Shown here one piece after another: positions 36,578-64,000 of a stretch of 64,000 bases of DNA. Origin of the DNA: Craspedostauros australis (Eukaryota); contig JALAGF010004801.1 of NCBI GenBank assembly GCA_030167865.1, forward strand, positions 1 to 64,000, written 5' to 3'. A program made the translations under genes and the position numbers. The number at the start of each line of letters is the position of its first letter. Within the stretch, counting starts at the first letter, position 1. The notes beneath the pieces were generated by a model that made no database searches, was not told the origin of the DNA, and worked only from the letters and a program-made list of their open reading frames with translations.

Positions 36578-36740
36578 CGGTCTCTCCAACAATTCTATTG
36601 AATATGAATTTTACTACAAATCCAGAACACTTACACAGGCACGAACATACAACAATCGTCCAATCATGCTATTCTATTGTATATTCATCATTGCCAGGTG
36701 CTTCCGCTTCTGTTGTGAGATGCTGTGGTCCATGAAATTG

Positions 36741-36911: not shown

Positions 36912-37333
36912 AGTATAACACGATGTATTGCGATGATCCAAATCGAATGAGGATGATGATCACAACGGATATCACGGGAGATGCTGCGGACCCTGCAACT
37001 GGCAATCCGACAGAATAACATCTCATCATCAACTCATCCTATGTGAGTTCAATCAACTCAACAACAATCAATTCGAAATCGACAACTAACGATTAAGACC
37101 CACTCGAGTGAACGAAGGTGCAGTCGTGCCTGATAGTGACTTAAACTTTGACAAAATAAGTACATATTCGGAATCTACGTAAAATTCTGTCGAGGGGTAT
37201 TTAATTTAAAAATCGGGAGAGTTGTGGATCGAAAGTTATAGACCTTGCAATAGTTTTGGTCTTCGGCCGTTGTAGACCTTCCTTAGACTTCGGCGGGTAT
37301 CGCCAAAACTCGATGATGATGTCACACCTGTTC

Positions 37334-38409: not shown

Positions 38410-38614
38410 GTAACTACTGAAGACGTATTGGCCCGTTATTGTGTGCCCTGGTCGAAGCTCTTGTTCTTTTATTGTGAGTTGCCCGAAGACAATCCCCTGA
38501 CCAGTATTTGTTGGAAATCCGGGGTAACCCAGTCTCTAGTAGTAGTATCTGATTACCTATTCCTGTTGTTGCATTGTTGGAACTGTGAGTACAACATCTC
38601 CATCTCTTTCAATT

Positions 38615-38747
38615 NNNNNNNNNNNNNNNNNNNNNNNNNNNNNNNNNNNNNNNNNNNNNNNNNNNNNNNNNNNNNNNNNNNNNNNNNNNNNNNNNNNNNN
38701 NNNNNNNNNNNNNNNNNNNNNNNNNNNNNNNNNNNNNNNNNNNNNNN
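38615..38747. other. Assembly gap
   Basis: Run of N. Confidence 1.
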
Positions 38748-38985
38748 ATCATTCATCTCAGATATTCCATCTCCTGCTCTCTGCATGCATCTCATCATGC
38801 ATTTCAGTAGTTTCATTTCGCTCTACGCTCATGCAGTTCGTCTTGTAGCCGTGTAGGTACCTCGCCATGGATCTCATGACAATCGATCCCACATCATCGT
38901 CAATTCCTCAGTATTCCTCTCACGCGACCATCATGTCACCTGTCGCGTCGCCATTCGTGCTCTTGAGCGGATAGGGGATCGCCTC

Positions 38986-39160
38986 NNNNNNNNNNNNNNN
39001 NNNNNNNNNNNNNNNNNNNNNNNNNNNNNNNNNNNNNNNNNNNNNNNNNNNNNNNNNNNNNNNNNNNNNNNNNNNNNNNNNNNNNNNNNNNNNNNNNNNN
39101 NNNNNNNNNNNNNNNNNNNNNNNNNNNNNNNNNNNNNNNNNNNNNNNNNNNNNNNNNNNN
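38986..39160. other. Assembly gap
   Basis: Run of N. Confidence 1.
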
Positions 39161-39272
39161 TGGACAGACCCTGTGATGCAAGACACGATTGGTTGCGTGA
39201 GGTGGGACAGGCTTACAAGGTTGTCCGAGTGTGATCAACAATGTTGAATCCATTGAGTCGTGAAGATATTAT

Positions 39273-39328
39273 TGGGAGGTGCGGCAATCATGGGTATCTT
39301 GACAAAGTCGTACCCCCGATTCCTGACA
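39273..39328. repeat. Second copy of the 56-bp LTR-like end
   Basis: 49/56 identical to 36856-36911, same orientation, ends ...attcctgaca. Confidence 0.85.
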
Positions 39329-39366
39329 CACACCGCGCCACCCCGCAGAACAGGAAGCACACTCAC

Positions 39367-41035
39367 CTGACCCATGAAAGCACAGAACTCAAGGAAGTCG
39401 ACATATCCGCTGCCATCGGCATCCATCACCGCCCACAACGCTTCGAAGTCATGACGGTTCATTTCAACAGCCTTTCCAGAGCTCAAGAACTCCCACATGC
39501 CCTCCTTTGTGATGTTGCCAACGGAGCTCGCACGTCGATCACTCTTGTCGGCCGTGGATTGGGCGTCGATCTTCTGGAACTCGCGAGCCAATGCCGCGGC
39601 ATCCATGCGTCTGGCCGGTACGCGGATGCTCATGGTCTGTGCAACACGTGCGGCGAATACGGCGCGGTATCTCTTTGCCTGTTGTTTGTTGTATATGTAG
39701 ACTGCGATAGCGACTACGATGAGGAAGAAGAGGACACCGCCGATGGTGAATCCAGCAATGACTCCTGCCTTGACGGGTGTGGTTGGCTCTTGATATGGGT
39801 TTGTGGCACAGTTGGGGTCGTACTGTGTCGTCCATTGATTGATTGATTGATTGATTGATGGGATGCATAGAGGGAAGCGAGAGATGGCAAATGAAAGAAG
39901 ATCGAGAATGTGAGAGGGGGGAAGCAGTGGCAGATTTGTGAGGACAAAAAGGATCGCCGATGCCAATTGCACTCTGAAAATATAGGCCGTGGCATCGGTA
40001 GAATTCAGAATAGATGTACTTGCCTCACACCATTGCTCCTCTGATGGGAATACACCAGCCAGCGAAGTGTTGGTCATGGGCACCTCAACACGGAGCACTT
40101 CAGGGACGGCGAACTCGTCATAGGTGCTCCTGATGCCCGCAATGAACTCGTCCTCTGTGATGCGCTGGCTGTGGCAGCTAATGAAAACGAGCAACTTGGA
40201 GCTGTTGTAAATAGAACTAATCTCTCTTTGAGCATTGCAGGCTGCATCGAGGCATGTGATTGTGTTCACGACGGTCACGAAGCTCAGACCCGCCACAACT
40301 CCCTTGGTTACAGTGGTGTCATTTCCAACTGTGTATGTGATCGTGTTTTCTTCACCCCCCTCGGGGCGAAAGGAACCCAGGTTTTGTTGCAAGGGCAAGG
40401 CGACAGTTCTCCCATCCAGCTCAAAGGTTGACGTTCCATATATGTCCAAGGCCTGTGCCACCCCGATCGTGCCGACCTCTGGTGCTGGGGGAATGATTCT
40501 ATATCGATGCTGGATTGTTCTTGTCCCTGAGTTCGTGTGGTTGGTGTACGTCTTTGATGGGAACTCACCCGTCAAGATGGTTCCTAGTCCGTCAATGGAG
40601 GCTGGTACCACCACGAGAGGCTGGGAGTCTGGTCCGTAAGTGTACGAATCACAGACGAAGAATCCAGCAAAGGCGGGCTTGAGAGAGAGAGAGAAAGAAG
40701 CAGAAGCATGCGATTGGTATGCGCGGGGATATGCCAAACAGCAAATTGGCCACGCACCGGAGAATAGGAAGAAAGGTGAGGCGAGGCGAGGACAAAGGGG
40801 GTGGGCAGTACTGGCAGAGGTGCGAGCATGATCATGCTCCCCTCGTTGTGTTGCAAAGACGTACAAAGATTCCTGGCTGATCGGCGATGTCATACTTGGC
40901 ATCATCCTTGTAGCGAGGATCTGAATCAGAGAGGCAGGGTTCGCGCCATGGATTGCCGCATTTGGCACCAGCCACCATGTTGCCCGTCATGGCCGCGGCG
41001 GCAGTGATGCTTGCGAAGAGGAAGCGCGAGGTCAT
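39367..41035 (-). CDS. Type I membrane protein with cytosolic EF-hand; exons 41035-40865, 40677-40024, 39822-39367; 3' end probably in or after the gap
   Basis: Signal peptide, Cys-containing ectodomain, TM (GVIAGFTIGGVLFFLIVVAIAVYIY), EF loop DADGSGYVDFLEF, donor CAG|GTGAGT; possible last codons at 38985-38920. Confidence 0.75.
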
Positions 41036-50244: not shown

Positions 50245-53200
50245 TCAATGGGTGCCGCTCTGACTGATGCTGTTTTCGTCGATGCTGCAGGGTGTCTCAC
50301 CTGGCGTATCCTGCAAATGGTGGAACATGGATTCGATCTCCTCCGCTTCACCGCCGTTCTTGTGGTGGTTGATGACGCTGCGGATGAAGTGCATCCTCCC
50401 GAGACCTGCTTGGGAATTGGACGTCGACGGCGGCGTTTCCTCGTCCCTTCGCATCCTGCGGTTCAGGATCGGCGTGCTGAACAGCTGCTGCCTCTGCATC
50501 TCGATATCCAGCTTGCGGTGGTTGTTCATGACGTTGCCGTCGTGGCGCTCGATGCAATCGGGATCGATGGCATCGAGTGCGTTGTCTTGCGAGAAGTGCT
50601 GCGTGAGGTGAGCGTTGTCGTTGATGAAGCTGTCGTGGGAGGCTTCGTCATCTTCCAATCGTCGCGCTTCTTCCTCTTCGTCCGTGTCTCCATCAAAATC
50701 ATCCGCGCCATCCACCCCTGCCTCTTGGTCCACGAATCGAGCGATCGCTGCCTGTCGCTTCCTGCGTCTTTGCAATTTTGCCTCCTCTTCAGAACCGCCG
50801 CCATCGTCATCATCGTCGTCATCATGATTAGTTTCACCACCGTTGTCGTCGTTGAAACGTACGCCCAGGGTCTCTTTGCATTTCCTATCGCCTCCATTGG
50901 ATGCTGTCGTTTTGGGATCTATCGATTTTGTCTTGCGCAACTTCTTCAACTTCGATCGTTCCTTCGTTCCATCGGTTCCACTCTCCCCACTGCTGGACTT
51001 TGCAGAATTTCCTCCATCTCTTCTGTTGCTGGGTTCTTGTTTCTGTATGGTTTGCAGTATGGATATTGTTGGCATCTCTTCGTTCGGATGGCAATCCATC
51101 CTCGTCGCGATGAAGGCATCAACATTCGTCACGTGCTTGGGACAGAACATGGCGACAGCAGCGACAGGTGCGTGCTCCATCGTGGTCATATCCAAGGGAT
51201 GCGATTTGTTGTTTTGCACGTTCTCCGCAGAATCGGTTTGAACACGAACCAACGACCAGCATCCCCGGGATGCATCATGCAACGCGCAGTGTGGGTGTGC
51301 TGCCACTTTACATGAATGGCACTGCGTGGCATCATACTCTGAGCACAGAACGCACTTTGTGGTCGGGTCGATGCAACGCCATGTGTTGCATGTCGTGTGT
51401 CTCCACATGCCGTTCATGGATCGCTTCATTGGCCCTGTGCTCAGTTTGCAGCTGGCACAGAGGAGCTCCGACGATCCCGGGCTTGATGGCTTGTAGCTGC
51501 ATTCGGCGCATTTCCAAATCTCATCCGATGATACATCAGCCTTGTCATTGTAGCATGACATGTGGAAACCAAGGTTGCACGTTCCATCACACAGGACAAT
51601 GGGATCAGAATCGGTCGAAGTCTTTTCAAAACAGACAGCGCAGCATATATCGTCGATGTCCAGCGATGTCATTGTGGATGGGGCGTGTGCCTGCCGGTTC
51701 TGCGGGAATATCCGGGGTGGAGTGTCCAGCAAAAATTGGCTGGGACCCATGCTACTGGGGTGTTGCGGACTGCCCAACTGAGATACAACATCATCGCTTG
51801 GCGTCTGTTTGGCGTCGCTGATCTGGGTGTCAAGAAGCAGTTGAGATGCTGCTGGGTGGCTCCGTCTCGATGGACTCTTCGTGGGGGTTGCGAATATGGA
51901 CATGCTGGATTGGCAGTCGTTTGTCTTGTCTGGTGTTTCATCGATGACCATGCGTCGCTTGGCAGGTCTCCTGACAACGACAATGCCCGAATCTTGTGAT
52001 GGCGATGGGTTGAATGGTGCCGGGGATAGACTTTGGTGTTGGCTTTGATGCTGGCTTGGACTTCCAAGATTCTCGTTTGCCTGAAGACCGACTGTCGACT
52101 TTGGCTTGCCGACTATTCCGTTGGGCACCAGCGGTGGTTTGCCAGGATCTGCCTGGGTTGTAAATGGCGAAGGCGACTCTGGAGGACTCTTGCTGTTGTT
52201 GCTGCTGTTGTTGTTGTTAATGTTGCCGCTACCGATGCTGGCGGCAGCATTTGGGTGAGAGATGGACGCGCAGTTGTTGCCGTCAATGTCGCCACAATCA
52301 TCAATACCACCGTTCTCGGCGTTGTCATCCCTTGCGATGCTACGCTCTTCTGCTAGCGCCGTCGTCGTTGGGTTATGCACCACCGTCGTTGGTGAATCTT
52401 CGAATGAGTCAGGCGGGTCCTTCCTCTTGATATCCTTTTTGTTTGGGCCATGGGATAGCAAGGAGATGATTGGTGGGTCGTAGTCTGCCTTGGCTCGCTT
52501 GGGTGAAACCAACGACATCAGAGTTTCTTCGTCTTCCGATTGCACGGGCGATGAACGCAGCAGACGCAGGTTCGTTCGTGCACTCGCAGACTGGCCTTTT
52601 TCTTCATCACGCTGTTTCTGTCTCTTCTGTTGCAGCTGTTTCGGTGTTGGTTTGTGCTTCGCCAACTTTTCCCGCAGCTCGATCAAAGGGAAATCGGGTT
52701 GGCTTAGATCGTTGGCGTCCTCGTAGACGGTGTCGTTTTGCATCGTAGGCGGGACCTGGTTGCTCACCTTCTTCTCTTCCTTTTCATGCTGAGCTTTGTC
52801 GGCGCCTTGCTCTATCATGGTGCCATTCGAATCATCGATTCCACCAGCATCCGATTGCGCCGTTGTTGCTACTATTGCTGTTGTTGGTGGTGGTGGGGCT
52901 GGTGACAGTGGCGACATTTCAGTGGGTTGGTTGGCGGCAATCGACAACACAATGCCATCGGTTTGGGAAGGCGATTCTTCGATTGGAAGTTGAATATTTT
53001 GGGGTGGCCCTCCATCCTTTCCACCATTAATCGCGCCTTCTCCATCGATGCCAAAGCTGGCATTGTGGTTGATGAAGCCATTTTCGTCGTTGTAGCTGTC
53101 TTCATCTTCGCCGTCGCTGCTGCTGCTGGACGAGGAGGCGACGGGGGCATCAAAGTAGATCCCCATCATTCCTTCATCAATGTTCATCTCATCCACATCA

Positions 53201-56200
53201 TGTTGATTCGATGGGACTTCAGCGTCTTCATTCGATTCTGCTTGATTTAGGGGTGATGCTTCGCTGGTGTTTGGGATGTCCTCGCTGCGCAGAATACTCA
53301 AACGACCTTCAGGCTCTAATGCTGGAACTTGTTCTGTGCGCGGTTGCTCTATCGATGTTGGAACGACTCCGTGCTGCTGTTCAACACCAGCACCGTCGCC
53401 ACCGCCATCGCCAATACCGGGACACTTATGCGTACCATCACGAACACCATTATCATGACCAGGACCTGCCCCCGCACTGTTTTCACGACGACTCTGGAGC
53501 CCAGTGTCGTGGTTGACTACTGGGATCACAGGGTCTGATATTTCGTCCGCATAATCGAATTCAGCATATCCGGACTGTGAAAGGCCTTCGTCCGGTGGAT
53601 CCGGTCGTTTGTCTTCCGCAGGCTTGTCGCTTGACTGACCCTGTGCGCGAGTTGTGTTCTGCGCCGTTTCCTGCACTTGCACTTGCACTTGCCTTACTTC
53701 CTTCGCCTGGATGGGTGCACTCGTAACAGATTCCTTTTGCGTCTGGTGTTGTCCAATTTCGTGTGCGGTAGTTGTTGTAGAAGAATCGTTGACATGAGCG
53801 TTAAGGACAGGTCCGTCTCTTGCACTGTCCGATGCTGAAGCGGTCTGATTATGTTGTCGGTGCTGCTGCCGATGCTGGCTTTTGTTTGCTTCGTGGTCTG
53901 TTTGGTGACTCGTACGATGAGCTTGTTCAGGTCGTGCATTTGACGGTGGTTGGTTGATCATCCGTACTTTCGTAGCTGCCGTGAGCTTTGACGTCGCATC
54001 TGCTGGTGTCAAGTCTTGTTCAGTTTGCGTGGTTGACGCTGAGAAAGCAGCAAGTTTGTTGGCTTCATTCAGCTTGTCTGCGCTCTCGATGTCATGACAA
54101 GGAAACGTGGAGAGCCATTCTTCCGCTCCTCTGTGTGAAATCCGCGGACGACCAGAAACTCTTCCGTGCGACCTCCTGCTCTTCGTCGAGGCGGCTGCTT
54201 GATCTCCCAACCCCGCGTCCACGAAGTTGCACGCAATCACAGCCTGCAACGCGATCATGGACGATCCTCTCGTTGGCATCTTCGCTGCACCACGATTGTC
54301 CAGATTGCAATCTGTCTTGCTGTCGGCATTCCCCATGGCAGTGCTTATTCGCAGGAAATGCCTGCGCAATGGATCCGGGAACATCGAGGCAGGGTCTGGC
54401 AACGGATTGTCTTCCTCTTGGCGCTGGGTGATTCCCAGCAAGAATCGACGCCGGAGCTGCGTGTCTTCATCCAACTTCCAGGGGCGCCGTCGATGCCGTC
54501 GACTTCCTGCGTTCCCATCCCCAACACCACCACCGCCACCACTTTTGCCCCTGCTGGAAGTCTTTCCAATACCGGCGACCTGCGAGAGCGGGTACGACTC
54601 GGGAATGCTGACTTGCAAATCGATGCGCTTTGGCAGCGGATTAAGGGGCAGTACGTTGGCTTTCGGAATCACCATCTTGAATTTAGCAGGCTGTTGCAAG
54701 GCCCGGCTCAGTCTCTTCTGGTCGTTGATCTGCTTGTGGTACGTTGTCTCCTCCAAACCTTTCGCAATCAGCGAAATCACACGCCCATCTCGTTTGCGCC
54801 CTGTCCGCCCGTTGCGTTGGATTGATCGGATGGGTGACCTCAGGATGTCGTAGTTGATTGTGAGATCGACATCGCCAATATCCAACCCCTCCTCGCCTAT
54901 GCAAGTGCATACGAGGACGTTGAAAGTACCTCGTCGAAATTCTGCCAACGCCTGCTGCTGTTCCGCCTGCTTCATTCCTCGCAAGGGGGTGCCGGATATC
55001 GTGAGCTGGCCCATTGCGGCTCCTTGAGCTGATCGTGGTGGCGGCTTTGCCTTCACCATACCCGTGGCGTAGGATGGTCGATACGTCTGCAACTTCGCAG
55101 TTGATGGCCCACCGACAGCCGAAGTGTCATTGGTTGTCGATGACGATGATGATGCTGCAGTTCCTGCTTCCGATTGACCCACGAAGTGACGCGGTCGGAG
55201 GTTGACATCGTCCAGGTTGCGCAACACCTTGGTGATTTCACCCACGGAGTCTCTTGAATGTGAAAAGACGATGGCCCGTGTTGATGCTTCTTTGCCGACT
55301 GCACGAGAACGTGCAAAGTGCTCCCGCAGCAAATCGACGAGCTTTTTCAGCTTGGGGGATTGCAGGATCCTGGCTTTGACGGGAGATTGGAACCTTCCGT
55401 TGGTGCTGGTGCTGGCTTCCGTCGACGTTGCTGCGGCGGAGGCGCTCAGGATCTTGTCCCACAGCTGCTTCCATTCATCGGATAGGATGATCTTCTTGAG
55501 CGAACCCAGCTTGGATGAAGCCTTGCCCTTGGAGTGCGCCAGCTGGTTGTACTCCATCATCTTCTGCCGCACCAGCCCGATCGATTGACGCGCGGATCCT
55601 CGCAACGACACCAGCTTCTGCAGGGTGAGGAAGTTGTGGATCATGCCATTGTTGGAGCTTGGTCGTTTCTTGTACTGCTCCATGAATCGGAACAGCGCGT
55701 TGGGGCTCAAGGCGACGATATCCATGGATTTGGGGAGGGCGCCAAAGCGCCGCAGATTGGCCAGAATTGGACCGATCAGGTCCATGTTGATGATGCGATC
55801 GATTTCTGATTGCAGCGCATTGGGCTCGACGATGACGACCTCGATGTGACGTTGGTGGACGTACTTTTCGACGGAGGGATCGTCTTCGGTCCGGGCAGCG
55901 AGCTGGGCGACGTGCAGGCGATCGATGATTTCCTGGATGGCCTTGATGGACGTGCCCGGCGTGGCGCTCAACCCAACGAGGCGGAAGTTGGATTCGCCAT
56001 CGCGTAAGGAGTGGACGACTTTCATGTAGGCGTAGTCACCGCGCGCCTTGTGCACTTCGTCAAGCACGAGGCAGACGATGCGCTTGGGACTGCAAATGCC
56101 TGACGCCAGATCATTCGCCAGCGTTTGCGGCGTGCCGTAGAGTATGCGCTTGGTTTGGTACCACCGAGAGCGTTCGGCAGGCGACGACTTGCCAGTGACG

Positions 56201-57849
56201 ACGGCGGTGTCATTCAGGGACAGACCTAGAATCTTGGAGCAGGCCTGTGCCTGTTGTGCGACGAGGGGCACAGTGGGAGCGAGGAATACGACGGTTCCTG
56301 TTGGGAACCAACGGTGGAAGTTGTATAGCACGACGGCGGCGATGAGCGTTTTGCCCAGTCCGGTGGGAAGGCTGACGAGCGTGTTGGACCACAACGCGGT
56401 TTCGGCCAGTTCCAGCTGGTAGTCTCGGACTGGGAAGTCGTCGTGCTTTGGGTATACCCACGTATTGATGGTTGCTGGATCGTACGGAATTGCGCCTTGT
56501 TCTGTTGGCAACTTGGATATCACATTGAGCATGGCCACGCGATGTCGTTTGGTCGGTGAATCAGGCACCCTCTTGGGCCTTGGTTTTGGCTTGGCTGCAG
56601 GCTTGCCATTCTTGGCTATACTGTTGTTGTCGTTGGTGGTAGTTGATAGAGCTTTTGGTGTTTTTGAATCGACAGTTTTGGATGGATGGGCGGTCGCGGG
56701 TGCCGTTGCAGATGATTGTCGATGGACGGAGGATGATTGGAAGCGTTGGAATGGATTGGTCGGTGCAGCTGTTGCGACTGGTGTAGGTGTTGTGGCCGTT
56801 ACGGCTGATCCCCGAGGCCGATCGGGTGACTTTCCAGCTGCGAACATTGCCATGTTTAACGATTGCGATGGCAACGGTGGTGCGACTCGTTTCGTTGCCG
56901 CAGGTTTCTTGTCGCTGCTGCTTGGTGGTGGTTTCTTTGCTTTGCTGGCGTATGGATTGCGAGCGAATGGCGTTCTGCTTTGTGATGGCGGCCTCTTGGC
57001 TGGCAAAGCAGCAGAGGCCGATACCCAGCTCGGACGGTACGACCCCATTGTCCGTACACGCCGCAACGGTTGATCTGGCGCGTGCACACTTGTGCTTGCG
57101 CTAGCGTCGTGATTGTGTTGGTCGGAGGCAGATTCCGCTGTGTTTGTTGCTGTCGCTGCTGCTCCTGCTGCGATCCCTGATGTTTGGCCAGTGTTTGTTT
57201 GAACTGCTGATGGATTGGCTTGTGAATCGCAAGCAGCAGCCATTCCCAATGCCTCTCTTGCCATCGTGAGGTTGATCGCATCATGGAGTGATCTTGTGGT
57301 GCTGCTTTTGTCTGGTGAAGTTTTGGAGTGTGCGCCCGTATTTGCGCCCTTACTTGCCCCCGTATTTGTGCTTGTATTTGTGCGAAGTTTCGAAGACGAG
57401 GTCGGCTTCAAGTATGGATTGGTTCTTGCTGGCTTTGATCTAGGCTGCTGCTGCTGTTGTTGCGCTGGCCCTGCGTTTGTGCTCGGCGCATTGCCCTTCG
57501 TGCCATTGCCGTCCGCATCATCCTCCAGGAGATTGACGACGTTGCCTTCATGCCGCGAACGCACGGGCTTCCCGAGCACAAAGTCGTGCATCTCCTGACG
57601 CGATGCTGTGCGCAGGGCATTGCACATGACGCATCGGTTGCCTGGGACGCTGTGTCGAAACGTGCATTCGTGGCAGCTCCACGCAATCAACGACGGCTTC
57701 TGGGAGCATGATGCGGACGATTGGGAAGACGCAACCGAATGGCTTGCACCATCCTGTCTGGGCCTCTTCGTCTGGCACTCGAACTGCTGGGATCTGGTGC
57801 TTCGTGCCGCTGCTGCGCTTGATCCCGTCGCCGCCGCGCGTCTCTTCAT
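50245..57849 (-). CDS. FANCM: FANCM/Mph1 helicase with N-terminal NZF and C-terminal PZP-like zinc fingers (2534 aa, single ORF)
   Basis: TWVYP..FPVRDYQ, LPTGLGKTLIAAVV, LAPTVPLVAQQ, DEVHKARG, GLSATPG, GMKQAEQ, GEEGLDIGDVD, QRNGRTGRKRDG; acidic FVDQEA/SFIND motifs; no ERCC4 domain seen. Confidence 0.92.
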   Translation of the reverse strand: MKRRAAATGSSAAAARSTRSQQFECQTKRPRQDGASHSVASSQSSASCSQKPSLIAWSCHECTFRHSVPGNRCVMCNALRTASRQEMHDFVLGKPVRSRHEGNVVNLLEDDADGNGTKGNAPSTNAGPAQQQQQQPRSKPARTNPYLKPTSSSKLRTNTSTNTGASKGANTGAHSKTSPDKSSTTRSLHDAINLTMAREALGMAAACDSQANPSAVQTNTGQTSGIAAGAAATATNTAESASDQHNHDASASTSVHAPDQPLRRVRTMGSYRPSWVSASAALPAKRPPSQSRTPFARNPYASKAKKPPPSSSDKKPAATKRVAPPLPSQSLNMAMFAAGKSPDRPRGSAVTATTPTPVATAAPTNPFQRFQSSSVHRQSSATAPATAHPSKTVDSKTPKALSTTTNDNNSIAKNGKPAAKPKPRPKRVPDSPTKRHRVAMLNVISKLPTEQGAIPYDPATINTWVYPKHDDFPVRDYQLELAETALWSNTLVSLPTGLGKTLIAAVVLYNFHRWFPTGTVVFLAPTVPLVAQQAQACSKILGLSLNDTAVVTGKSSPAERSRWYQTKRILYGTPQTLANDLASGICSPKRIVCLVLDEVHKARGDYAYMKVVHSLRDGESNFRLVGLSATPGTSIKAIQEIIDRLHVAQLAARTEDDPSVEKYVHQRHIEVVIVEPNALQSEIDRIINMDLIGPILANLRRFGALPKSMDIVALSPNALFRFMEQYKKRPSSNNGMIHNFLTLQKLVSLRGSARQSIGLVRQKMMEYNQLAHSKGKASSKLGSLKKIILSDEWKQLWDKILSASAAATSTEASTSTNGRFQSPVKARILQSPKLKKLVDLLREHFARSRAVGKEASTRAIVFSHSRDSVGEITKVLRNLDDVNLRPRHFVGQSEAGTAASSSSSTTNDTSAVGGPSTAKLQTYRPSYATGMVKAKPPPRSAQGAAMGQLTISGTPLRGMKQAEQQQALAEFRRGTFNVLVCTCIGEEGLDIGDVDLTINYDILRSPIRSIQRNGRTGRKRDGRVISLIAKGLEETTYHKQINDQKRLSRALQQPAKFKMVIPKANVLPLNPLPKRIDLQVSIPESYPLSQVAGIGKTSSRGKSGGGGGVGDGNAGSRRHRRRPWKLDEDTQLRRRFLLGITQRQEEDNPLPDPASMFPDPLRRHFLRISTAMGNADSKTDCNLDNRGAAKMPTRGSSMIALQAVIACNFVDAGLGDQAAASTKSRRSHGRVSGRPRISHRGAEEWLSTFPCHDIESADKLNEANKLAAFSASTTQTEQDLTPADATSKLTAATKVRMINQPPSNARPEQAHRTSHQTDHEANKSQHRQQHRQHNQTASASDSARDGPVLNAHVNDSSTTTTAHEIGQHQTQKESVTSAPIQAKEVRQVQVQVQETAQNTTRAQGQSSDKPAEDKRPDPPDEGLSQSGYAEFDYADEISDPVIPVVNHDTGLQSRRENSAGAGPGHDNGVRDGTHKCPGIGDGGGDGAGVEQQHGVVPTSIEQPRTEQVPALEPEGRLSILRSEDIPNTSEASPLNQAESNEDAEVPSNQHDVDEMNIDEGMMGIYFDAPVASSSSSSSDGEDEDSYNDENGFINHNASFGIDGEGAINGGKDGGPPQNIQLPIEESPSQTDGIVLSIAANQPTEMSPLSPAPPPPTTAIVATTAQSDAGGIDDSNGTMIEQGADKAQHEKEEKKVSNQVPPTMQNDTVYEDANDLSQPDFPLIELREKLAKHKPTPKQLQQKRQKQRDEEKGQSASARTNLRLLRSSPVQSEDEETLMSLVSPKRAKADYDPPIISLLSHGPNKKDIKRKDPPDSFEDSPTTVVHNPTTTALAEERSIARDDNAENGGIDDCGDIDGNNCASISHPNAAASIGSGNINNNNSSNNSKSPPESPSPFTTQADPGKPPLVPNGIVGKPKSTVGLQANENLGSPSQHQSQHQSLSPAPFNPSPSQDSGIVVVRRPAKRRMVIDETPDKTNDCQSSMSIFATPTKSPSRRSHPAASQLLLDTQISDAKQTPSDDVVSQLGSPQHPSSMGPSQFLLDTPPRIFPQNRQAHAPSTMTSLDIDDICCAVCFEKTSTDSDPIVLCDGTCNLGFHMSCYNDKADVSSDEIWKCAECSYKPSSPGSSELLCASCKLSTGPMKRSMNGMWRHTTCNTWRCIDPTTKCVLCSEYDATQCHSCKVAAHPHCALHDASRGCWSLVRVQTDSAENVQNNKSHPLDMTTMEHAPVAAVAMFCPKHVTNVDAFIATRMDCHPNEEMPTISILQTIQKQEPSNRRDGGNSAKSSSGESGTDGTKERSKLKKLRKTKSIDPKTTASNGGDRKCKETLGVRFNDDNGGETNHDDDDDDDGGGSEEEAKLQRRRKRQAAIARFVDQEAGVDGADDFDGDTDEEEEARRLEDDEASHDSFINDNAHLTQHFSQDNALDAIDPDCIERHDGNVMNNHRKLDIEMQRQQLFSTPILNRRMRRDEETPPSTSNSQAGLGRMHFIRSVINHHKNGGEAEEIESMFHHLQDTPGETPCSIDENSISQSGTH

Positions 57850-58699
57850 TTCCGACGCAGTGGCTGCGCTGCCTTCCTCGCCTTGGGATTCGCGTGGTTG
57901 GTATCGTCTCTCCCCAACACGCTGGTCTTCTTGCTCAGTTGTTCTTATTGTTGTCGTTGTCGTTGCCGTTGTTGTCCCTTTTGCTGATGTGTCTGCCTGT
58001 CCTCAATGATCCTTCACCACTTCCAACCGAAACATCCCGCGTTCCTTGCCTCCCACCAGCTCCTCCGACTGCCACAACACGACACAGTACAACACCCCTC
58101 TGGTGTTCGATTGGCTGGTACCAGCAGAGTACGGGATGACGAAGGAGTATGTGGGAGCATTCGTTGGGTTCGTGGTCAGTGTGGAAGCAAGTTTTGTGTC
58201 GTCTTGTTATTGTCAACGTGTGTTTGATTTTTGGCGCGACGTTCAGCGAGAGGTCTGTCCGCCTCCATTGCACTACGCATTCTAAGCTAGAGACAAGAAA
58301 CAGAAAAACTGGAGACTTCGCCAACGCACAACGAGTCCATTTGTCCTGCTCGTGGACACGTGGTGCTATCGGAACTATCATGCTGGCTGGCAGGAGCATT
58401 GTCCTTTGGTGTACGGATCATGGTGACTTATTGAACTTGGATTAGTTTGTACTTGTGCTCGCAAGCATAGTATGGAAATATATTTGTGAAGAGCGTGATG
58501 CTCACAGTATGGAAAATCACATGCATGAAGATGACACCCTGACTTCTCTCATCTCCCATGGAGTCCGGGGCTCGTCATCTTTCTCAATTTGGGTTGCCGA
58601 GGATCGCCTTGGCGGCTGGGGATACCTGCGCGTGAGCGCGGCAGTCCTCGCTGAAATGTTGGACGGATACTAGGGGACTGTGTGGTACGCTGACGACCT

Positions 58700-61684
58700 C
58701 TAATAGTAACGCATCCAGTTGTGCGCTCCGCGAGGGATCATCTCTGGGACCTGGACGCGAAGGCGTTCCCACATGACGGCGTCGACGTTGCGGTAGACGA
58801 TCATTCCGATCTGCTGGGCGCGCTCGGGCAGGGCCCACATCAACACCTTGAGGTACCGGACGCGCTGTGGGTGGCGGGTCAGGTTCTGCAGCACGAACGG
58901 GATGATGATGTTCCACCGTTCGGCCTCTGTGATCTCGAAGACCTTGCGCGACATCTGCTTCTGCAGCTCCAGCGGAATGTGCTTGCGTCCGATGCACACG
59001 AGGTTGTCCTCCTCGCCGCGGAGATGCTCCTCGAAGTCATCGAAGAACGGTGGCAGGATGCGCTTGAGGACGTCGAGGGCGTCTTGGCGCACGCCAAGGC
59101 TCAGCGAGCTGTCCAGAAGCTGATTGGCGGCCTGGTTCACCTCCTCGAAGACGCGGTGGTATCCATCATGGTCGTTGTTGTACTTCTTGGCGTGCTCCGG
59201 GAACCAGTCGTTGAACATCTTGAAGATGACTTCGTCCTCGTGCTTGGAGTGCTCGTCGTGCAGGATGGAGAAGCGGTTGAGATGGACGGCGAACAGCGAG
59301 AGGTTGTCGCGCATCTCGGCGCTGTCCGTGTTGACATCGAGAACCTCCAACGAGATCCTCATCGTCTCCATGTTGCCCCGGAATGCTTCGTGGGTCAGCT
59401 TCATGAAGGACAGTGGTCCCCACTTGACTTCCGGAGTGAAGACGGTGCGGCGGTTCAGCATGCCGAACATGGTGTGGAGGAAGTTGACGAACGTGGCGAA
59501 GCTCGCGATGACCAGGAACATGAAGGACAGGGTCTCTGCGGAGCGGAATCCCGTCAACGAGTAAAACGCCGCACCACATGCCGCCAGCACGTCCAGCGAG
59601 AAGCAACCGATCCAGTAGTGCATGCCCCATGAATCGTTGCCCATGAAGGCAAGGTGTGGCAGCGACGAAACGACGATGCCAAAGAAGATGAAGATGCCGG
59701 CGAAGTAGTAGCTCGAGAATCGGATGGCGCACTCGTCGTTGCTGAAGCCGGCGCCCGCGATGCAGATGGGGAAGTCCGCAAGTCCCACGACGCATGGGGC
59801 TGCCAGCCAAACCCAGATGCCGTGGCGCACGCGGTTGTCGGAGTTGTGCGTGGTGACGGTCTTGAAGAATGTGATCGTGAACAGGACCAGCCACATTAGC
59901 TGGGCGAATGACTGGAAGAACGTGCCGACGAATACGAGTCCCACGATGTCGCTGTTGTCGGCAGCAAAGAATGGGATGACGGGAGCGACGAGCGCGGCGA
60001 CGCTGAGGCCGACTGGGAGGATCAGCCAGTGAGCGTGAACGTGCTCCATCTCCATGCGGCGGCCGATCCATTCGCCGAACTTGGTAACCGTCAGGATGAC
60101 GTGAAGGATGGACCCCATCCAGAAGAAGACTCTGGCAGCCTTCTGCGCGGGCTCTTCGTCGAGGCTTGGGTAGTTGTTGTTGAATTCAACCTCGTCGTAG
60201 AGCAAGAAGGCGAGGAGCATGATCGTGATGGTGATCATGCCGAAGGAGGGTGATGCCAATGGGCTGTCCCATTCGAGCTGGACCTTGTGGAAATAGAACA
60301 CGGCGCGGGCGGCGTAGAGCGCGAGGAAGGCGAGGAAGATCATGGCACCAAAGAACGAGATCACGTGGTGCCAGCTGTCATCGACGATGATGCTGCGCGT
60401 TCCGAGTCCCAAAACGAGAGGAGAGAAGCGCGACGTGGACCAAGACGAGGCCATCTTGAATGCAACGGCAAGTCCGTTGATGGCAAGCGGCATGGAGAAG
60501 TAGGAGACCTGCATGTTCCGGATGAGGTGGAAGTCATCCTTGGTCCATTCGTCGCTCTTCTTCTTGTACTTGAGAGCGATGGCGGAGCTGGGGTCGGTGT
60601 TGACCTTGACCGGTTCCGGGGCGTTGCTATCAGTGAATTTGTACTCCCACGATTCCTCCACCTCCTGACGTGTGGAGGTGTAGATGCGGTACACGTGGTC
60701 GGGGATGAGGCCAAGATAGATGCCGATGGCGAAGAACTCGCAGCCGAGGCAGAAGTCGAATGCCCATTCGAGGAACGAGGCACCGGCCAGGCCGATCATG
60801 AAGACCATGCCCAGGTATTCATGCCCGTCAAAGTCCACGAAGTAGAAAAGGGTTCCGAAGCCAGAGAACATGATGCCGCAGAAGGAGGCGAACTGCTTGG
60901 GTGGGCCGGGACGGAACTGTGGCTTGAACTTGGATGTGGCGACATTGGCGATCATGCCGCAGGCGGATGCGGACGCTCCCGCGACGAATCGAAGACAGAA
61001 GTCCGCGAGCACGAATGCCGCAGTGTATCGTCCCCACTTCTTGTTCCAAAAGGCCGCGGAAAGGATGGACAGGACGAAGGTTTGGAAGCCGATGACGCGA
61101 ACCGCGTAGTTGTTGACGACGTTGGGGAAGAAGAAGAGCGGGTGGCATGCGCGGCTTCGCGGAGGTGGCAAGAGACGGGCCGTCTCCAGCTGGTCGGTGC
61201 CTTCGAAGCGGGGGCGCGTGTGTTCGACTCCCTTGAGGAGGGTCTGCTCCAATGTTCCCTTGGCATGGAGTCCCTTGAGATCGTCGCACCCGCCGATGAA
61301 GTTGCCCTTGATGTAGATCATGGGGACCGTTTTGTGCTCGGTCTGCTCGCGCAGATGCTCGAAGATCAATGCCCCATCAGGGTGTTCATTGATCTCGACA
61401 ACGTGAACAGGCACGCCCAGCTGCACCGCCAGGAGATCCTTGGCATCGCGACAGAAGGGGCAGTGAGTTTTGGAGAACATGACGACGTCGTGGTCTTCGA
61501 TGATCGAAGCGACCTGCTCCTCCAGCGAAGCTCCCTTGTACGCGGAGAGATCGTTGAGGACCGTCACATTTTTGGAGTCTGAGGATTCGCCCCGGGTGTT
61601 GCCTCCGGTGGTCGTGACCTGCGGTCCTTCGACTTCGAGGTCGGCTTCCACGCCGCCCGTTTCGGGATCTGGATAAGTGGTCAT
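58700..61684 (-). CDS. Glutaredoxin - DUF4395-like - SLAC1/TDT channel - hemerythrin fusion protein (994 aa)
   Basis: FSKTHCPFC, TVP, GGCDD; FPNVVN..AVR, PKQFA, FLEWAFDFCLGC; about 10 TM from YFSMPLAINGLA to YWIGCFS; H765...HxxxE(812-816)...H839...HxxxE(887-891). Confidence 0.88.
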   Translation of the reverse strand: MTTYPDPETGGVEADLEVEGPQVTTTGGNTRGESSDSKNVTVLNDLSAYKGASLEEQVASIIEDHDVVMFSKTHCPFCRDAKDLLAVQLGVPVHVVEINEHPDGALIFEHLREQTEHKTVPMIYIKGNFIGGCDDLKGLHAKGTLEQTLLKGVEHTRPRFEGTDQLETARLLPPPRSRACHPLFFFPNVVNNYAVRVIGFQTFVLSILSAAFWNKKWGRYTAAFVLADFCLRFVAGASASACGMIANVATSKFKPQFRPGPPKQFASFCGIMFSGFGTLFYFVDFDGHEYLGMVFMIGLAGASFLEWAFDFCLGCEFFAIGIYLGLIPDHVYRIYTSTRQEVEESWEYKFTDSNAPEPVKVNTDPSSAIALKYKKKSDEWTKDDFHLIRNMQVSYFSMPLAINGLAVAFKMASSWSTSRFSPLVLGLGTRSIIVDDSWHHVISFFGAMIFLAFLALYAARAVFYFHKVQLEWDSPLASPSFGMITITIMLLAFLLYDEVEFNNNYPSLDEEPAQKAARVFFWMGSILHVILTVTKFGEWIGRRMEMEHVHAHWLILPVGLSVAALVAPVIPFFAADNSDIVGLVFVGTFFQSFAQLMWLVLFTITFFKTVTTHNSDNRVRHGIWVWLAAPCVVGLADFPICIAGAGFSNDECAIRFSSYYFAGIFIFFGIVVSSLPHLAFMGNDSWGMHYWIGCFSLDVLAACGAAFYSLTGFRSAETLSFMFLVIASFATFVNFLHTMFGMLNRRTVFTPEVKWGPLSFMKLTHEAFRGNMETMRISLEVLDVNTDSAEMRDNLSLFAVHLNRFSILHDEHSKHEDEVIFKMFNDWFPEHAKKYNNDHDGYHRVFEEVNQAANQLLDSSLSLGVRQDALDVLKRILPPFFDDFEEHLRGEEDNLVCIGRKHIPLELQKQMSRKVFEITEAERWNIIIPFVLQNLTRHPQRVRYLKVLMWALPERAQQIGMIVYRNVDAVMWERLRVQVPEMIPRGAHNWMRYY

Positions 61685-63126
61685 CTTGGACGATCACTTG
61701 GTTGCCTATGGGCTTGTTGCTGCTGTTGCTGTTGCCTTGATGGGTATGTATTGAGTCTGTGTTGGGCGGCAATTGTTGGCAGGAGTGCACAATAGGCAGG
61801 CATGGATCGATGAGGATGGCACGACAATGGCATGAGAAGGGATCGGTGAGTGGCTTCATCGCAATACGAGTGGATGCCTTGAGGTACTTAGTTTGGAAGA
61901 GATCGAGGCCTTCGTTGCTGCGCGTGGAACTCTCAACGAAGACACAAAGCAACGACCGAGATTCAGGAGCCACCGTAACCCGCCATTGTCACATTGTCAC
62001 CATTGTCAGCATCGCCACCGTCGTTGCCGCCAGCAAAGTGTTGGCCATTGCCCTTGGTTGCAAGACGAAGCGCAAGCAGGAGTACTGCCTGACAGCAAAG
62101 CGAGCAATCGTATCCAAGCTGTGCGTTGTCACCATACTCACCCGCAGAGTAAAGTCTTCGTATTGCCGGACTATTCTGATTTGATGTGACACGGAACTGT
62201 TGCTTCGCAGTCGAGGTCGATGTCGAAATTATGAGATCTTTGGGTGAGTTGCTTGATGTTTGTCAGCGCGATGTTTGTTGATGTTGGTATCGTGGTTGCG
62301 GTAACATCACCGCAAGGCAGACAGTGTTCTCATGCCCTCTTGAAACACGCAACATCAACACTGCAACCACGCAGCGAATCTTTAAAGCTGATCATTCCTT
62401 CGTGGTTGTGACTCCGCGTGTTTGGGAATTCAGGCGTCGGTCTGCGTGTTCCATTCCCACAGGAAGAGGAAGACAGCGTCAACCGTTCTGGTTGATGTCG
62501 TTGGTGTTGTGGGTGTCAACATTTTCAAGTGTCAAAGAAGTGTTCCTTTCTTGTGGTTGCACGGAATTGGCCTGTTGCGATGCGCTTTGCCGGTTACTTG
62601 GTGGCGTTCGGGCGCTCAAAGAGCCTTGGTTCCCTCTCTCTCTCTGTGTTTGCGCGGGCGTGTGCCAACTTCCGAGCGGTTGTTTCGTGGCCACAATTGG
62701 CGAAATTGAAGTCGACAGTCGCCACAGAGAGAACAGGGCAGATGTCGCAGCCGAAACGATACAATGGATTGTATCACGTCACCATGTTGCGGAACGTGAG
62801 TTTTATCTCTTGGTGATCGTGACATTCCAAGCAGTATCGCATGGTTATGGGACTTGGCCATTCCTGCATGGAATTGCATGGCACACGAACCAGTTGTGCG
62901 TGGGGATCGGCATCACATGAAGTTTCAGCACAGTTGCATGCAGTGAGCTGACCGATTCATGACCAATGGACGTTAACAAGAGGTGATACTCCACTCTTGC
63001 TCTGTCTCGGTTCTCGAAGACAAATTTGGTCTCCACACTCCACACTTCTGCACCCAAGAGCGCGGAAGGGCGGCAAGATCCCATGTAGAGAAGGACGAAG
63101 AGAAACGATGAGACCCACCGAACACA

Positions 63127-63200
63127 ACGACATCACGACATCACGACATCACGACATCACGAGGGAACAACAAGGAACAAGGAACAAGGAACAAGAACAG
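63127..63200. repeat. (ACGACATC)4 and (CAAGGAA)n short tandem repeats
   Basis: Direct reading of the sequence. Confidence 0.85.
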
Positions 63201-64000
63201 TGGGGACACAAGGAAGGAGAGAACGTCCCGTGTTGTTGGCTGCACAATCCACCAGATACAAGATTTCGACCAGATTGTTCGTCGCAGTCATGAAGTGCGT
63301 TCTCATGCGTGAAACGGAGACGTCGGAGATGTCGGAGACGCAACGGAGTTCGTGTAAAATATTCATTTCACACATAAATGATAGCTTTGTGAGAGTGGAA
63401 TGATTGTGGTCGGTTTGATCATGACATCAAGAACCGGCTACGAACTCAAATCTAGAGAGAGAGAAAGAGGATAGCATCATGGATTCGTCCATGTGCAGTA
63501 TCAAAGATGCGAGTACAGATCAAGAGGTACCTCACTCTGTTGAATAACATGGACTATCATGAAACGCACACCGCATGCGCATGTATGTGTCAAACGTGAC
63601 ATGAAGTAGAGACTTTCATTCTGGTAGCTTGTGGTGACTATTTACCCAACAATCGATTGATCCCATGACACCACTCGACGGCAGAGTACTTGTGGAGCAG
63701 ATCGGACTGGTCTATCCCAGTCTGTATGCAATCGCGGTTAATGTGCATTCGTTGTGTTGAGAAATCAGCTGAACAAAAGTGGTTAGAGCACAACAGAACG
63801 GAGAGAGAGAGATACAAGCTCTGTGAGTCATTCATGTTTGGATGCTCTGAAGCACAGGGCTGATAACCATCATATGTGCTGATGTCGCTGCTGTTCCACC
63901 ACCATCCACATTGTGGAGTGATGAAAGAATGTGCGTGCTACGGTTATCTCCCAACACGTAATAGCGCCAGAGCGCTCGCCAAGGAGTGGGAATGTAGCTC

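Follow-up and report, generated by a model that had tools for sequence, protein, structure and literature searches.

A glutaredoxin-DUF4395-SLAC1-hemerythrin fusion protein in the diatom Craspedostauros australis, a candidate anion channel with built-in redox and di-iron sensors

RESULTS

A single gene encodes all four domains

The window analyzed here (64,000 nucleotides of a Craspedostauros australis contig) contains a minus-strand gene that encodes one 994-residue polytopic membrane protein of an uncharacterized family, in which a glutaredoxin, a DUF4395 module, a SLAC1/TehA pore domain, an HHE hemerythrin-like domain, and a helical extension follow one another from the N to the C terminus (Table 1). 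The original prediction, made from the sequence alone, had described one stop-free ORF at this position without giving a strand. We recovered a 994-codon ORF that begins with ATG on the minus strand, and every motif named in that prediction was found where it had been placed, under the same residue numbers. Since a transcript product of Stauroneis constricta (996 aa) is 77% identical to the encoded protein over 100% of its length, the ORF is not a chance one.

Transcript data came as RNA-type contigs from one public run (X1). These contigs are collinear with 58405-61296 and 61358-61756 and contain no joint inside either interval (61297-61357 is uncovered), so that the coding region, whose continuity had been suggested as a check, is not split in them. 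Their sole joint leads from 61756 to 62142 and skips an intron located 72 nt upstream of the ATG. The gene had been called intronless, which is correct for the coding region but not for the 5′ UTR. The ATG is preceded by an in-frame stop at a distance of four codons, and no ATG occurs in the 141 covered bases of the 5′ UTR; therefore, the 994-aa reading is complete. Together with homologs that carry the same fusion, the X1 contigs confirm that the four-domain protein is real and belongs to one transcription unit. All four domain assignments are likewise supported by Pfam, profile searches, structural matches, and the C-terminal domains of homologs.

Table 1. Features of the locus and of the encoded protein
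Feature	Positions	Strand	Basis
First exon, non-coding, at least 69 nt covered	62142..62210	-	Contig 6 of X1
5′ UTR intron, 385 nt, GTGAGT...CAG (GT..AG)	61757..62141	-	X1 contig joint and splice-site letters read by script
5′ UTR portion of the coding exon, without ATG	61685..61756	-	Contig 6 of X1 up to the joint
Complete CDS, single coding exon, 994 codons plus stop	58700..61684	-	ORF list and translation
Class I dithiol glutaredoxin (residues 55-150); C75-P-F-C78 at 61451-61462	61235..61522	-	PF00462
DUF4395 four-helix membrane module (residues 186-330); C312-x-x-C315 at 60740-60751	60695..61129	-	PF14340
SLAC1/TehA-type anion channel domain (residues 390-740), about 10 TM; candidate gate Phe F695 at 59600-59602	59465..60517	-	PF03595
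Linker between TM10 and the first helix of the hemerythrin-like domain (residues 741-764)	59393..59464	-	Conservation
HHE hemerythrin-like four-helix domain (residues 765-900)	58985..59392	-	PF01814, ligands, AF2 model
Conserved helical C-terminal extension (residues 901-994)	58703..58984	-	Conservation and model
3′ UTR, at least 295 nt	58405..58699	-	Contig 1 of X1, spanning 58405-60050

The N-terminal half pairs a glutaredoxin with an invariant membrane CxxC

Conservation was counted in an alignment of 37 full-length sequences (A1). The glutaredoxin domain matches PF00462 (residues 67-130, E 1e-13, 51.3 bits; cut-off 22.9) and TIGR02180 (GRX_euk; E 1.3e-22, 79.8 bits, under the equivalog cut-off of 87.25). 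Its best match in the PDB as a single sequence is Grx2 (3uiw, E 2.5e-16), and the A1 family profile matches class I glutaredoxins there at E 3e-29. It carries CPFC at residues 75-78, TVP at 119-121 (the cis-Pro loop), and GGCDD at 131-135 (the glutathione site); C75, P121, and GGC are each conserved in 36/37 sequences and C78 in 33/37.

The adjoining module matches PF14340 (residues 190-319, E 9e-18, 65.3 bits; cut-off 24.5). In the AF2 model (pLDDT 91.5), it forms four long helices, with the CxxC at the N terminus of a short fifth helix, and its loop charges are compatible with an N-in/C-in topology. D228, R232, G236, S240, K263, Q264, E306, C312, and C315 are invariant (37/37), and the alignment with bacterial DUF4395 members shows a shared GPPKxFA loop and a shared FCxGC motif (FCLGC at 311-315 in the diatom protein, with C312 and C315). 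A structural search with the model gave no solved structure that informs on the fold (unrelated bundles at best, Z 8.7; Foldseek E at least 0.47); VKOR appeared in Foldseek at the level of noise (TM 0.23, rmsd 18.6), and no Pfam hit to VKOR/DsbB was found for the module.

DUF4395 also occurs on its own in bacteria (at least 585 genome hits). All 80 stand-alone bacterial ORFs examined have a second CxxC no more than 40 residues after the first, whereas none of the 37 eukaryotic fusion proteins has this second C-terminal pair and 36 of them have the N-terminal glutaredoxin cysteine. This pattern fits a replacement of the resolving cysteine pair of bacterial DUF4395 by the glutaredoxin dithiol. 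As for the role of DUF4395 itself, our proposal below is a guess from its cysteines and its position.

The C-terminal half combines a SLAC1/TehA pore with a hemerythrin-like domain

The pore domain matches PF03595 over almost the whole profile (residues 390-738, positions 1-330 of 331, E 6e-24, 85.2 bits against a cut-off of 27.9) and the tellurite-resistance/dicarboxylate family TIGR00816 (E 1.1e-15). Against the PDB, the A1 profile finds SLAH3 (5.9e-24), SLAH1 (2.9e-23), TehA (3e-22), and SLAC1 (2.2e-17), score differences that are too small to indicate ion selectivity. The predicted count of about 10 TMs agrees with hydropathy for this domain; in the model, DUF4395 contributes four long helices besides these. 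F695, which is invariant in A1 (37/37), aligns with position 262 of Haemophilus influenzae TehA in a weak pairwise alignment (E 2.7; counted by hand). We take F262 of TehA and F450 of SLAC1 to be the pore-occluding phenylalanine, and position 262 is said to have been identified as the TehA gate by Chen and colleagues in 2010.

The C-terminal domain scores below the PF01814 cut-off of 25.3 bits, both within the whole protein (residues 759-896, E 7.6e-4, 20.4 bits) and alone (24.1 bits); the hemerythrin assignment therefore needs the orthologs and the model. All 11 aligned C-terminal domains match PF01814 at E≤0.01 (best 4.5e-11), and 16 of the 45 scanned relatives reach the cut-off. Among the candidate ligands (H765, H812xxxE816, H839, and H887xxxE891), H765, H812, E816, H839, and E891 are each present in 37/37 sequences and H887 in 36/37. 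The AF2 model of the domain (pLDDT 87.5) finds HHE proteins as its four top VIA-align matches (3cax, Z 15.2; 2p0n, Z 15.0; FBXL5, Z 13.8; 6q09, Z 13.5; rmsd 2.8-4.8 Å over 150-176 residues), with Z values of 13-15 lying near the level that helical bundles reach through arrangement alone. Foldseek places FBXL5 at TM 0.74-0.76 with a probability of 1.0, and in the sequence-profile search, ScdA/YtfE come out best (E 0.9-1.8e-3), followed by FBXL5 (E 2.9e-3). Altogether, these results support an HHE hemerythrin-like domain with predicted di-iron binding. The original prediction had specified the FBXL5/BRUTUS sensor type. The likeness to FBXL5 held up, but it is not specific: because the bacterial HHE proteins 3cax, 2p0n, and 6q09 are equally alike and the profile favors RIC proteins, a sensor of this type is one option.

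The strongest conservation lies outside the catalytic and pore domains (0.53-0.61). The linker at residues 741-764 is the most conserved region, with a mean top-residue frequency of 0.76 and at least 90% reached in 9 of its 24 columns. It is followed by the extension at residues 901-994 (0.71; at least 90% in 19 of its 94 columns), which is helical with pLDDT >90 in the AF2 model and has no Pfam match over its length. This feature was absent from the original prediction. Such conservation is consistent with a tight mechanical coupling.

The architecture occurs in several eukaryotic groups

All four Pfam domains were detected in 23 of 79 homologs, and PF01814 in 51 of 79. The family was found in diatoms, a pelagophyte, a labyrinthulid, green and red algae, choanoflagellates, and a diplonemid, with no land plant among the named holders; within the starred diatom clade, the protein adjoins that of Stauroneis. 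Capsaspora and Rigifila keep DUF4395 and SLAC1 without a glutaredoxin match: the domain corresponds to an alignment gap in Capsaspora, and a PF00462 match is absent from the Rigifila sequence (P0184), as it is from a truncated Ostreobium entry (P0142). Three further family sequences have a monothiol site. Since the glutaredoxin is missing or monothiol in several members, its relay would be dispensable in some lineages. "Complete" full-length transcript ORFs are known from several species, and the two "short forms" examined start inside DUF4395 and are therefore cut gene models. In their source databases, homologs bear the name [quoted passage not shown] A full-text literature search found no characterized protein with the glutaredoxin-DUF4395-SLAC1-hemerythrin architecture, and the original prediction, too, had known of none.

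DISCUSSION

A model of sensor-gated anion efflux

From the sequence, we infer, with the original prediction, that the protein might couple redox, Fe, and O2 status to gating or else reduce and export an oxyanion. On the motifs and structural models, our preferred reading, which we hold tentatively and rate slightly short of an even chance, is that the protein may be an S-type anion channel under the control of a di-iron sensor and of a switch running from the glutaredoxin to the membrane dithiol. Because there are 4 + 10 membrane helices, both soluble domains would lie on the same side, which we assume to be the cytosol because the termini of plant SLAC1 are cytosolic; the invariant CxxC would then sit at the cytosolic membrane interface. 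The protein would let anions out as an S-type channel and, as with SLAC1 and TehA, would probably assemble as a trimer; its opening would be set by two built-in sensors in place of kinases acting on an N-terminal tail. One would be a thiol switch, in which the glutathione-dependent glutaredoxin reduces or glutathionylates C312/C315 of DUF4395. The other would be the di-iron centre, from which the state of metal loading or of oxidation (Fe supply, O2, H2O2, or NO) would be relayed to TM10 via the highly conserved 24-residue linker and the C-terminal extension. The transported ion would by default for the fold be nitrate, chloride, or another small anion. The TDT family also includes carriers, such as Mae1 and Ssu1, and for this reason the word "channel" is used with some reserve.

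Alternative readings

The same domains could instead serve oxyanion detoxification, a reading that we consider unlikely, in which, at the membrane face, the glutaredoxin and the dithiol of DUF4395 act on a toxic oxyanion such as selenite, tellurite, arsenate, or sulfite, either reducing it or conjugating it to GSH, the TehA/Ssu1-like domain exports the product, and the di-iron site senses or assists. The TIGR00816 and TehA matches and the database names of the homologs agree with it, and glutaredoxin-dependent reduction of arsenate and selenite is established chemistry. In 8 of 54 actinobacterial loci, moreover, stand-alone DUF4395 is followed by a convergent gene of the LMWPc family, which has the fold of thioredoxin-type arsenate reductases. 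These neighbors, however, score best as phosphotyrosine phosphatases and all fall far under arsenate-reductase cut-offs; since all eight loci come from Acidimicrobiales-type MAGs, the adjacency may reflect the synteny of one lineage. The remaining 46 loci have unrelated neighbors, none of the 108 neighbor ORFs encodes TehA/SLAC1, glutaredoxin, or hemerythrin, and the invariant di-iron ligands and the conserved extension would be left unexplained. A module for NO and nitrite, to which we assign a smaller, low probability, gives each domain a job: a hemerythrin of the RIC or mycobacterial HLP type would consume NO or handle nitrosative damage, the channel would release nitrite or nitrate, and glutaredoxin-DUF4395 would return electrons to the di-iron site. 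It draws on SLAH3, a nitrate-permeable channel, as the best solved match of the pore and on ScdA and YtfE as the best profile matches of the C-terminal domain; a hemerythrin-like protein is reported to consume NO (PMC11744678). Yet those profile E-values are marginal and nearly equaled by the sensor FBXL5, the pore scores are too close for selectivity, electron transfer from dithiol to di-iron lacks support, and the family also occurs in heterotrophs (Capsaspora, Rigifila, choanoflagellates, and the diplonemid).

It is also conceivable, though improbable, that the activities are independent, with glutaredoxin and DUF4395 forming, by analogy with VKOR/DsbB, a membrane thiol-disulfide oxidoreductase for lipids, quinones, or proteins that is tethered for location and not for gating. 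A module of four membrane helices in which a helix begins with a CxxC and which adjoins a thioredoxin-fold domain would suit this, as would the stand-alone bacterial DUF4395 proteins with their two CxxC and a metagenomic sequence (P0114) that joins CRAL_TRIO, glutaredoxin, and DUF4395, with SLAC1 not detected. Only 10 residues follow DUF4395 in P0114, however, and this gene model may be a cut one. Against independence, there is no meaningful structural match to VKOR/DsbB, DUF4395 lies directly upstream of SLAC1 in all 34 scanned proteins that match both (31/34 longer than 650 residues), and the linker between the two is conserved (0.60). An artefact (a chance ORF, an assembly chimera, or read-through of neighboring genes) has a negligible probability: the window is GC-rich (0.57 here), with long spurious ORFs on the opposite strand, but the significant domain matches keep their order across dozens of species, the transcript contigs are collinear over all domain boundaries, and the protein groups with Stauroneis in the starred diatom clade. 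As far as sequence data allow, this reading is refuted.

Implications

Nearly all that is known of S-type anion channels comes from guard cells and roots of land plants, where kinases open them. Our finding points to a much wider protist family, in which two folded modules, the putative sensors, take the place of the regulatory tails. If, as we favor, these sensors gate the pore, then iron, oxygen, and thiol redox status would be linked directly to membrane anion flux, which matters in diatoms and other plankton, in which limiting iron and the handling of nitrogen are determinants of ocean productivity. The family also offers a first experimental handle on DUF4395, a family without a known role whose bacterial members number in the hundreds, and each hypothesis is directly testable through point mutants at invariant residues. 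The broadest version of our proposal, which we regard as doubtful, is that this would be the first channel with its own hemerythrin di-iron sensor and a glutaredoxin-driven membrane dithiol switch, representing an old, kinase-independent form of S-type gating that responds to iron, oxygen/NO, and the glutathione redox state and is shared by stramenopiles, green and red algae, holozoan protists, a diplonemid, and CRuMs. On that view, DUF4395 would for the first time be assigned a function, that of a thiol switch in the membrane.

Comparison with known systems

The diatom glutaredoxin domain has CPFC, TVP, and GGCDD in common with class I glutaredoxins (3uiw Grx2, 5zvl, and 3rhb GrxC5) and differs from them in being tethered to a membrane protein. 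VKOR-thioredoxin fusions and DsbB are membrane thiol oxidoreductases and provide an analogy for the module that follows: they too combine four helices in the membrane with a CxxC where a helix begins, and the same polypeptide includes a thioredoxin-fold partner. DUF4395 has no meaningful sequence or fold match to them, and its predicted side is cytosolic, as opposed to periplasmic or luminal.

The C-terminal domain shares its four-helix bundle and the H/HxxxE/H/HxxxE pattern with FBXL5 (3v5x, 3u9j), BRUTUS, NMB1532 (2p0n), PF0695 (3cax), and an Rv2633c homolog (6q09). Those proteins are soluble or parts of ubiquitin ligases, whereas the diatom domain is joined to the last helix of the channel and to a 94-residue extension. 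The position of the bridging Glu of FBXL5, which we take to be the extra one at E58, is Ser813 in the diatom protein. The RIC proteins YtfE and ScdA (7bhc, 9j47) are its best sequence-profile matches, with marginal scores; they are regarded as repair or NO-related proteins, not as sensors, and, unlike the diatom protein, are soluble and carry an N-terminal ScdA_N domain.

In the pore domain, H. influenzae TehA (3m71 and mutants) is matched by the profile at E 3e-22 to 1.7e-20 over residues 380-719, but it is a bare ten-helix protein of 314 residues to which no other domain is fused. Plant SLAC1, SLAH1, and SLAH3 (7wnq, 9m7r, and 9m7s) belong to the same pore family, with profile matches across the ten-helix domain, and the diatom pore sequence is no nearer to them than to bacterial TehA. 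Plant S-type channels open through the action of kinases on their cytosolic tails. In the diatom protein, the disordered N-terminal tail with kinase sites is absent and a folded glutaredoxin with DUF4395 stands there instead, while on the C-terminal side a hemerythrin-like domain is found where the plant channels have a regulatory tail.

The gene yields a single transcript with one coding exon

The contigs of one public sequencing run (X1), in which 89% of the locus's sampled words are present, are collinear with the genome at 58405-61296 and 61358-61756, with no joint inside, so that the four domains lie on a single transcript. In one contig, 61756 is followed directly by 62142; the 385 nt left out start, on the gene's strand, with GTGAGT and end with CAG and form a canonical intron, positioned in the 5′ UTR of the 994-codon gene. 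The label of X1 is only "RNA?", and none of the listed runs is registered as RNA; since this contig is spliced at a canonical intron, we take the X1 contigs to derive from spliced RNA. An in-frame stop is found four codons 5′ of the ATG, within the coding exon, and the 141 covered bases of the 5′ UTR contain no ATG. Therefore, the 994-residue protein is complete and encoded by one exon. Its 3′ UTR spans at least 295 nt.

Some features of the locus are less clear-cut. In X1, the 3′ contig (58405-60050) has a depth of about 81 and the five contigs covering the 5′ part about 7-13, and the contigs break at 60044-60050, where the depth differs; this step near 60050 could be 3′ bias or a shorter internal transcript, which contigs cannot distinguish. 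One contig departs from the genome at 61729, and its next 110 letters match nothing in 56000-64000, possibly reflecting an alternative 5′ exon or a junction within the 5′ UTR. Two long antisense ORFs, one of 303 codons at 58721-59632 (+) and one of 431 at 60287-61582 (+), overlap the gene and are probably by-products of a GC-rich coding strand. The downstream neighbor (50245-57849, -) is an uninterrupted ORF of 2534 codons with DEAD/ResIII helicase and Helicase_C domains, a C-terminal PHD finger (both Pfam models under cut-off), and much low-complexity sequence. The GC content is 0.43-0.47 at 36001-40000 versus 0.51-0.61 in the rest of the window.

Family membership of the four domains

The original prediction of a glutaredoxin-DUF4395-SLAC1-hemerythrin fusion agrees with Pfam in the order of all four domains and, for the first three, in scores above the cut-off, while the hemerythrin match falls slightly short. 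The residues named in that prediction are all correctly placed: CPFC at 75-78, TVP at 119, GGCDD at 131, and FCLGC at 311 (C312/C315), as well as the His/Glu pattern H765, H812xxxE816, H839, and H887xxxE891. Hydropathy likewise bears out about 10 membrane segments in the SLAC1 part, with several more in DUF4395.

Position, Pfam score, and conservation of the gene and its parts (mean top-residue frequency in the family alignment)
Feature	Position	Strand	Score (bits)	Cut-off (bits)	Mean top-residue frequency	Source
ORF, ATG start, 994 codons	58700..61684	-				ORF list and translation
Glutaredoxin	residues 67-130		51.3	22.9	0.54	Pfam
DUF4395	residues 190-319		65.3	24.5	0.61	Pfam
SLAC1 (pore)	residues 390-738		85.2	27.9	0.53	Pfam
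TM10-hemerythrin linker, 24 residues					0.76	
Hemerythrin (bundle)	residues 759-896		20.4 (just below)	25.3	0.54	Pfam
C-terminal extension, 94 residues					0.71	

When the whole protein was searched as a single sequence, the best 60 of 71 PDB matches were glutaredoxins only, and the pore domain as a single sequence matched only TehA (E 2.7-6.8); single sequences were insufficient, and profiles were required to reach solved relatives of the pore and C-terminal domains. With the family profile, the entire ten-helix domain matches SLAH3 (5.9e-24), SLAH1, TehA (3e-22), and SLAC1 (2.2e-17). The invariant F695 corresponds, in a weak pairwise alignment counted by hand, to position 262 of H. influenzae TehA, which we take to be the gate. 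The best solved relatives of the glutaredoxin are class I dithiol enzymes (Grx2 3uiw, 2.5e-16 by single sequence; 5zvl, 3e-29 by profile). Of the 37 aligned full-length proteins, 36 keep the catalytic C75, 36 the cis-Pro loop, and 36 the GGC motif. The resolving C78 is kept in 33; two others have Ser at this position and one has Thr.

For the C-terminal domain, a profile built from eleven such domains has only di-iron HHE proteins as its top matches (ScdA, 9e-4; YtfE, 1.8e-3; FBXL5, 2.9e-3), and each of the 11 matches PF01814 individually (best 4.5e-11). The AlphaFold model of the domain is confident (pLDDT 87.5, pTM 0.86), and out of 48,161 chains compared with it, the four that match best are HHE hemerythrin-like proteins (3cax, Z 15.2; 2p0n, Z 15.0; FBXL5 3v5x, Z 13.8; 6q09, Z 13.5), at Z values close to the level that helical bundles can attain through arrangement alone. 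The Foldseek target TM-score for FBXL5 is about 0.75, and an Atlas search with this part returned hemerythrin clusters at 0.82-0.83, which we treat as a lead only. The decisive point for the hemerythrin-like assignment is that these Z values coincide with a ligand set that shows no variation at H765, H812, E816, H839, and E891 and almost none at H887 (36/37). Altogether, by the family tests, the protein belongs to the class I glutaredoxin, DUF4395, and SLAC1/TehA families and, judged by its ligands and modeled fold with a Pfam score just under the cut-off, probably to the HHE hemerythrin-like one.

The architecture recurs across eukaryotic supergroups

The homologue search returned 79 proteins, 23 of which carry all four Pfam domains and 51 the hemerythrin domain; the closest, translated from a transcript of the diatom Stauroneis constricta, has 996 residues and is 77% identical over 100% of the length. 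A word-based search with the DUF4395 part found five eukaryotic fragments only and no bacterial relatives, so that an exhaustive search was required to go beyond these fragments; it gave 359 cluster representatives at E <= 1e-3. Among 45 of these picked for a Pfam scan, a SLAC1 domain lies directly downstream of DUF4395 in 34, and hemerythrin matches at E <= 1e-3 in 18, reaching the cut-off in 16. Apparent "short forms" with only SLAC1 and hemerythrin were rejected as real variants, since both of those examined start midway through DUF4395 and are thus truncated gene models. A metagenomic protein of 645 aa (P0114) combines a CRAL_TRIO lipid-binding domain, glutaredoxin, and DUF4395 and ends 10 residues after the latter, which could reflect either a separate kind of fusion or a truncated gene model.

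The named holders comprise diatoms (Stauroneis, Seminavis, Epithemia, Fistulifera, Helicotheca, Ditylum, and Amphiprora), other stramenopiles (a pelagophyte and the labyrinthulid Mucochytrium), green algae (Chlamydomonas sp. UWO241, Pyramimonas, and Ostreobium), the red alga Porphyridium, the choanoflagellates Diaphanoeca and Stephanoeca, the filasterean Capsaspora (without glutaredoxin), the CRuMs flagellate Rigifila, and the diplonemid Rhynchopus. Land plants, animals, and fungi do not appear among the named matches listed, which are best-scoring subsets. A maximum-likelihood tree of 28 rows joins the window's protein to that of Stauroneis (support 100/100) inside a 12-row clade (100/99) that holds all eight diatom rows and four others. 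The proteins of the two loricate choanoflagellates (P0037, Diaphanoeca; P0043, Stephanoeca) fall within a 100/100 clade of stramenopile sequences (diatoms, a pelagophyte, and Mucochytrium), with the holozoan Capsaspora apart on a long branch; this placement hints at gene transfer.

Source databases name the homologues "Glutaredoxin-C4", "S-type anion channel SLAH3", or [quoted passage not shown]. These names were assigned automatically; the sequences are thus already known and the architecture unstudied. Full-text searches of freely accessible main articles found no characterization of the four-domain architecture. The full-text literature searched does not combine SLAC1 with a glutaredoxin domain, or with hemerythrin and glutaredoxin together, and pairs hemerythrin with SLAC1 in unrelated work only. 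In this literature, DUF4395 receives passing mentions only, and passages in PMC5156380, PMC7539508, and bioRxiv 2021.07.31.454568 are about other proteins. What makes the architecture noteworthy is its spread over eukaryotic supergroups, the invariant residues of its putative sensors, and its direct testability.

DUF4395 and its bacterial relatives

The DUF4395 model is very confident (pLDDT 91.5) and comprises four long helices and a small two-stranded sheet made by the FPNxVN and GPPKQFA motifs, with the CxxC beginning a short fifth helix immediately after helix four. Fold searches returned generic helical bundles only, with no solved structure specifically like DUF4395; at E <= 10, Pfam matched 27 members with nothing beyond noise (e.g., YgaP-like_TM in 3 members, E at least 1.6), and the score of 0.76 from an Atlas search for further named relatives was too low to use.

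Bacterial DUF4395 proteins stand alone, with at least 585 genome hits, the best 80 of which are mostly from Actinomycetota. Each of these 80 ORFs has, past the fourth helix, two CxxC motifs, the second no more than 40 residues after the first; the four cysteines at the membrane interface could be a metal or cluster site as well. The second CxxC is absent from 37/37 eukaryotic fusion proteins, and an N-terminal glutaredoxin cysteine is present in 36/37. We sampled the genomic neighborhood in 54 loci with 108 immediate neighbor ORFs, a narrow set of Actinomycetota and allies drawn from the best 80 of at least 585. By locus, the neighbors are LMWPc in 8 (convergent), Ppx-GppA in 6, LGT in 4, metallo-beta-lactamase or rhodanese in 3, and otherwise unrelated; TehA, glutaredoxin, and hemerythrin are absent from the 108. 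The LMWPc neighbors, all of which score below every cut-off, resemble tyrosine phosphatases more closely than arsenate reductases. Because the neighbors are inconsistent, genomic context gives no function. In several Acidimicrobiales-type loci, an ORF of 259-283 residues lies directly upstream of DUF4395 on the same strand; these ORFs have no Pfam match, and three tested also have no NCBIfam match.

A candidate anion channel with two built-in sensors

Since the fusions lack the bacterial second CxxC and have gained a glutaredoxin cysteine, we infer that the glutaredoxin dithiol replaces the second pair. If so, the glutaredoxin and the membrane CxxC would act as a relay. The 4 + 10 helices would put both soluble domains and the CxxC on the same membrane side, which, by analogy with the termini of SLAC1, would be the cytosolic one; the charges of the DUF4395 loops are distributed in a way that fits this predicted side and does not prove it. 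The linker and the C-terminal extension, which has no Pfam family, are the most conserved regions, a pattern to be expected if a mechanical link ties the putative di-iron domain to the last pore helix.

The best-supported reading, which we hold tentatively and at a little under an even chance, is that of an S-type anion channel in which kinase-regulated tails are replaced by two built-in sensors. One would be a switch on DUF4395, driven by glutathione and glutaredoxin and working between dithiol and disulfide (or by glutathionylation); the other would be a di-iron center signaling iron, O2, H2O2, or NO through its occupancy or oxidation state. Such gating is suggested by domain composition alone, and the topology, oligomeric state, ion selectivity, and metal binding of such a channel are likewise predicted. 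The same domains could instead reduce an oxyanion and couple this to its export, which we regard as unlikely but worth keeping in view. Activities that are co-localized on one chain and otherwise independent seem less probable still, and a module for NO/nitrite, in which the di-iron domain would be catalytic, has a slimmer chance again. That the fusion is an artefact we consider extremely improbable; the probability left over goes to other explanations. Plant SLAC1 is a relative in the pore domain; its regulatory design is not shared by the diatom protein.
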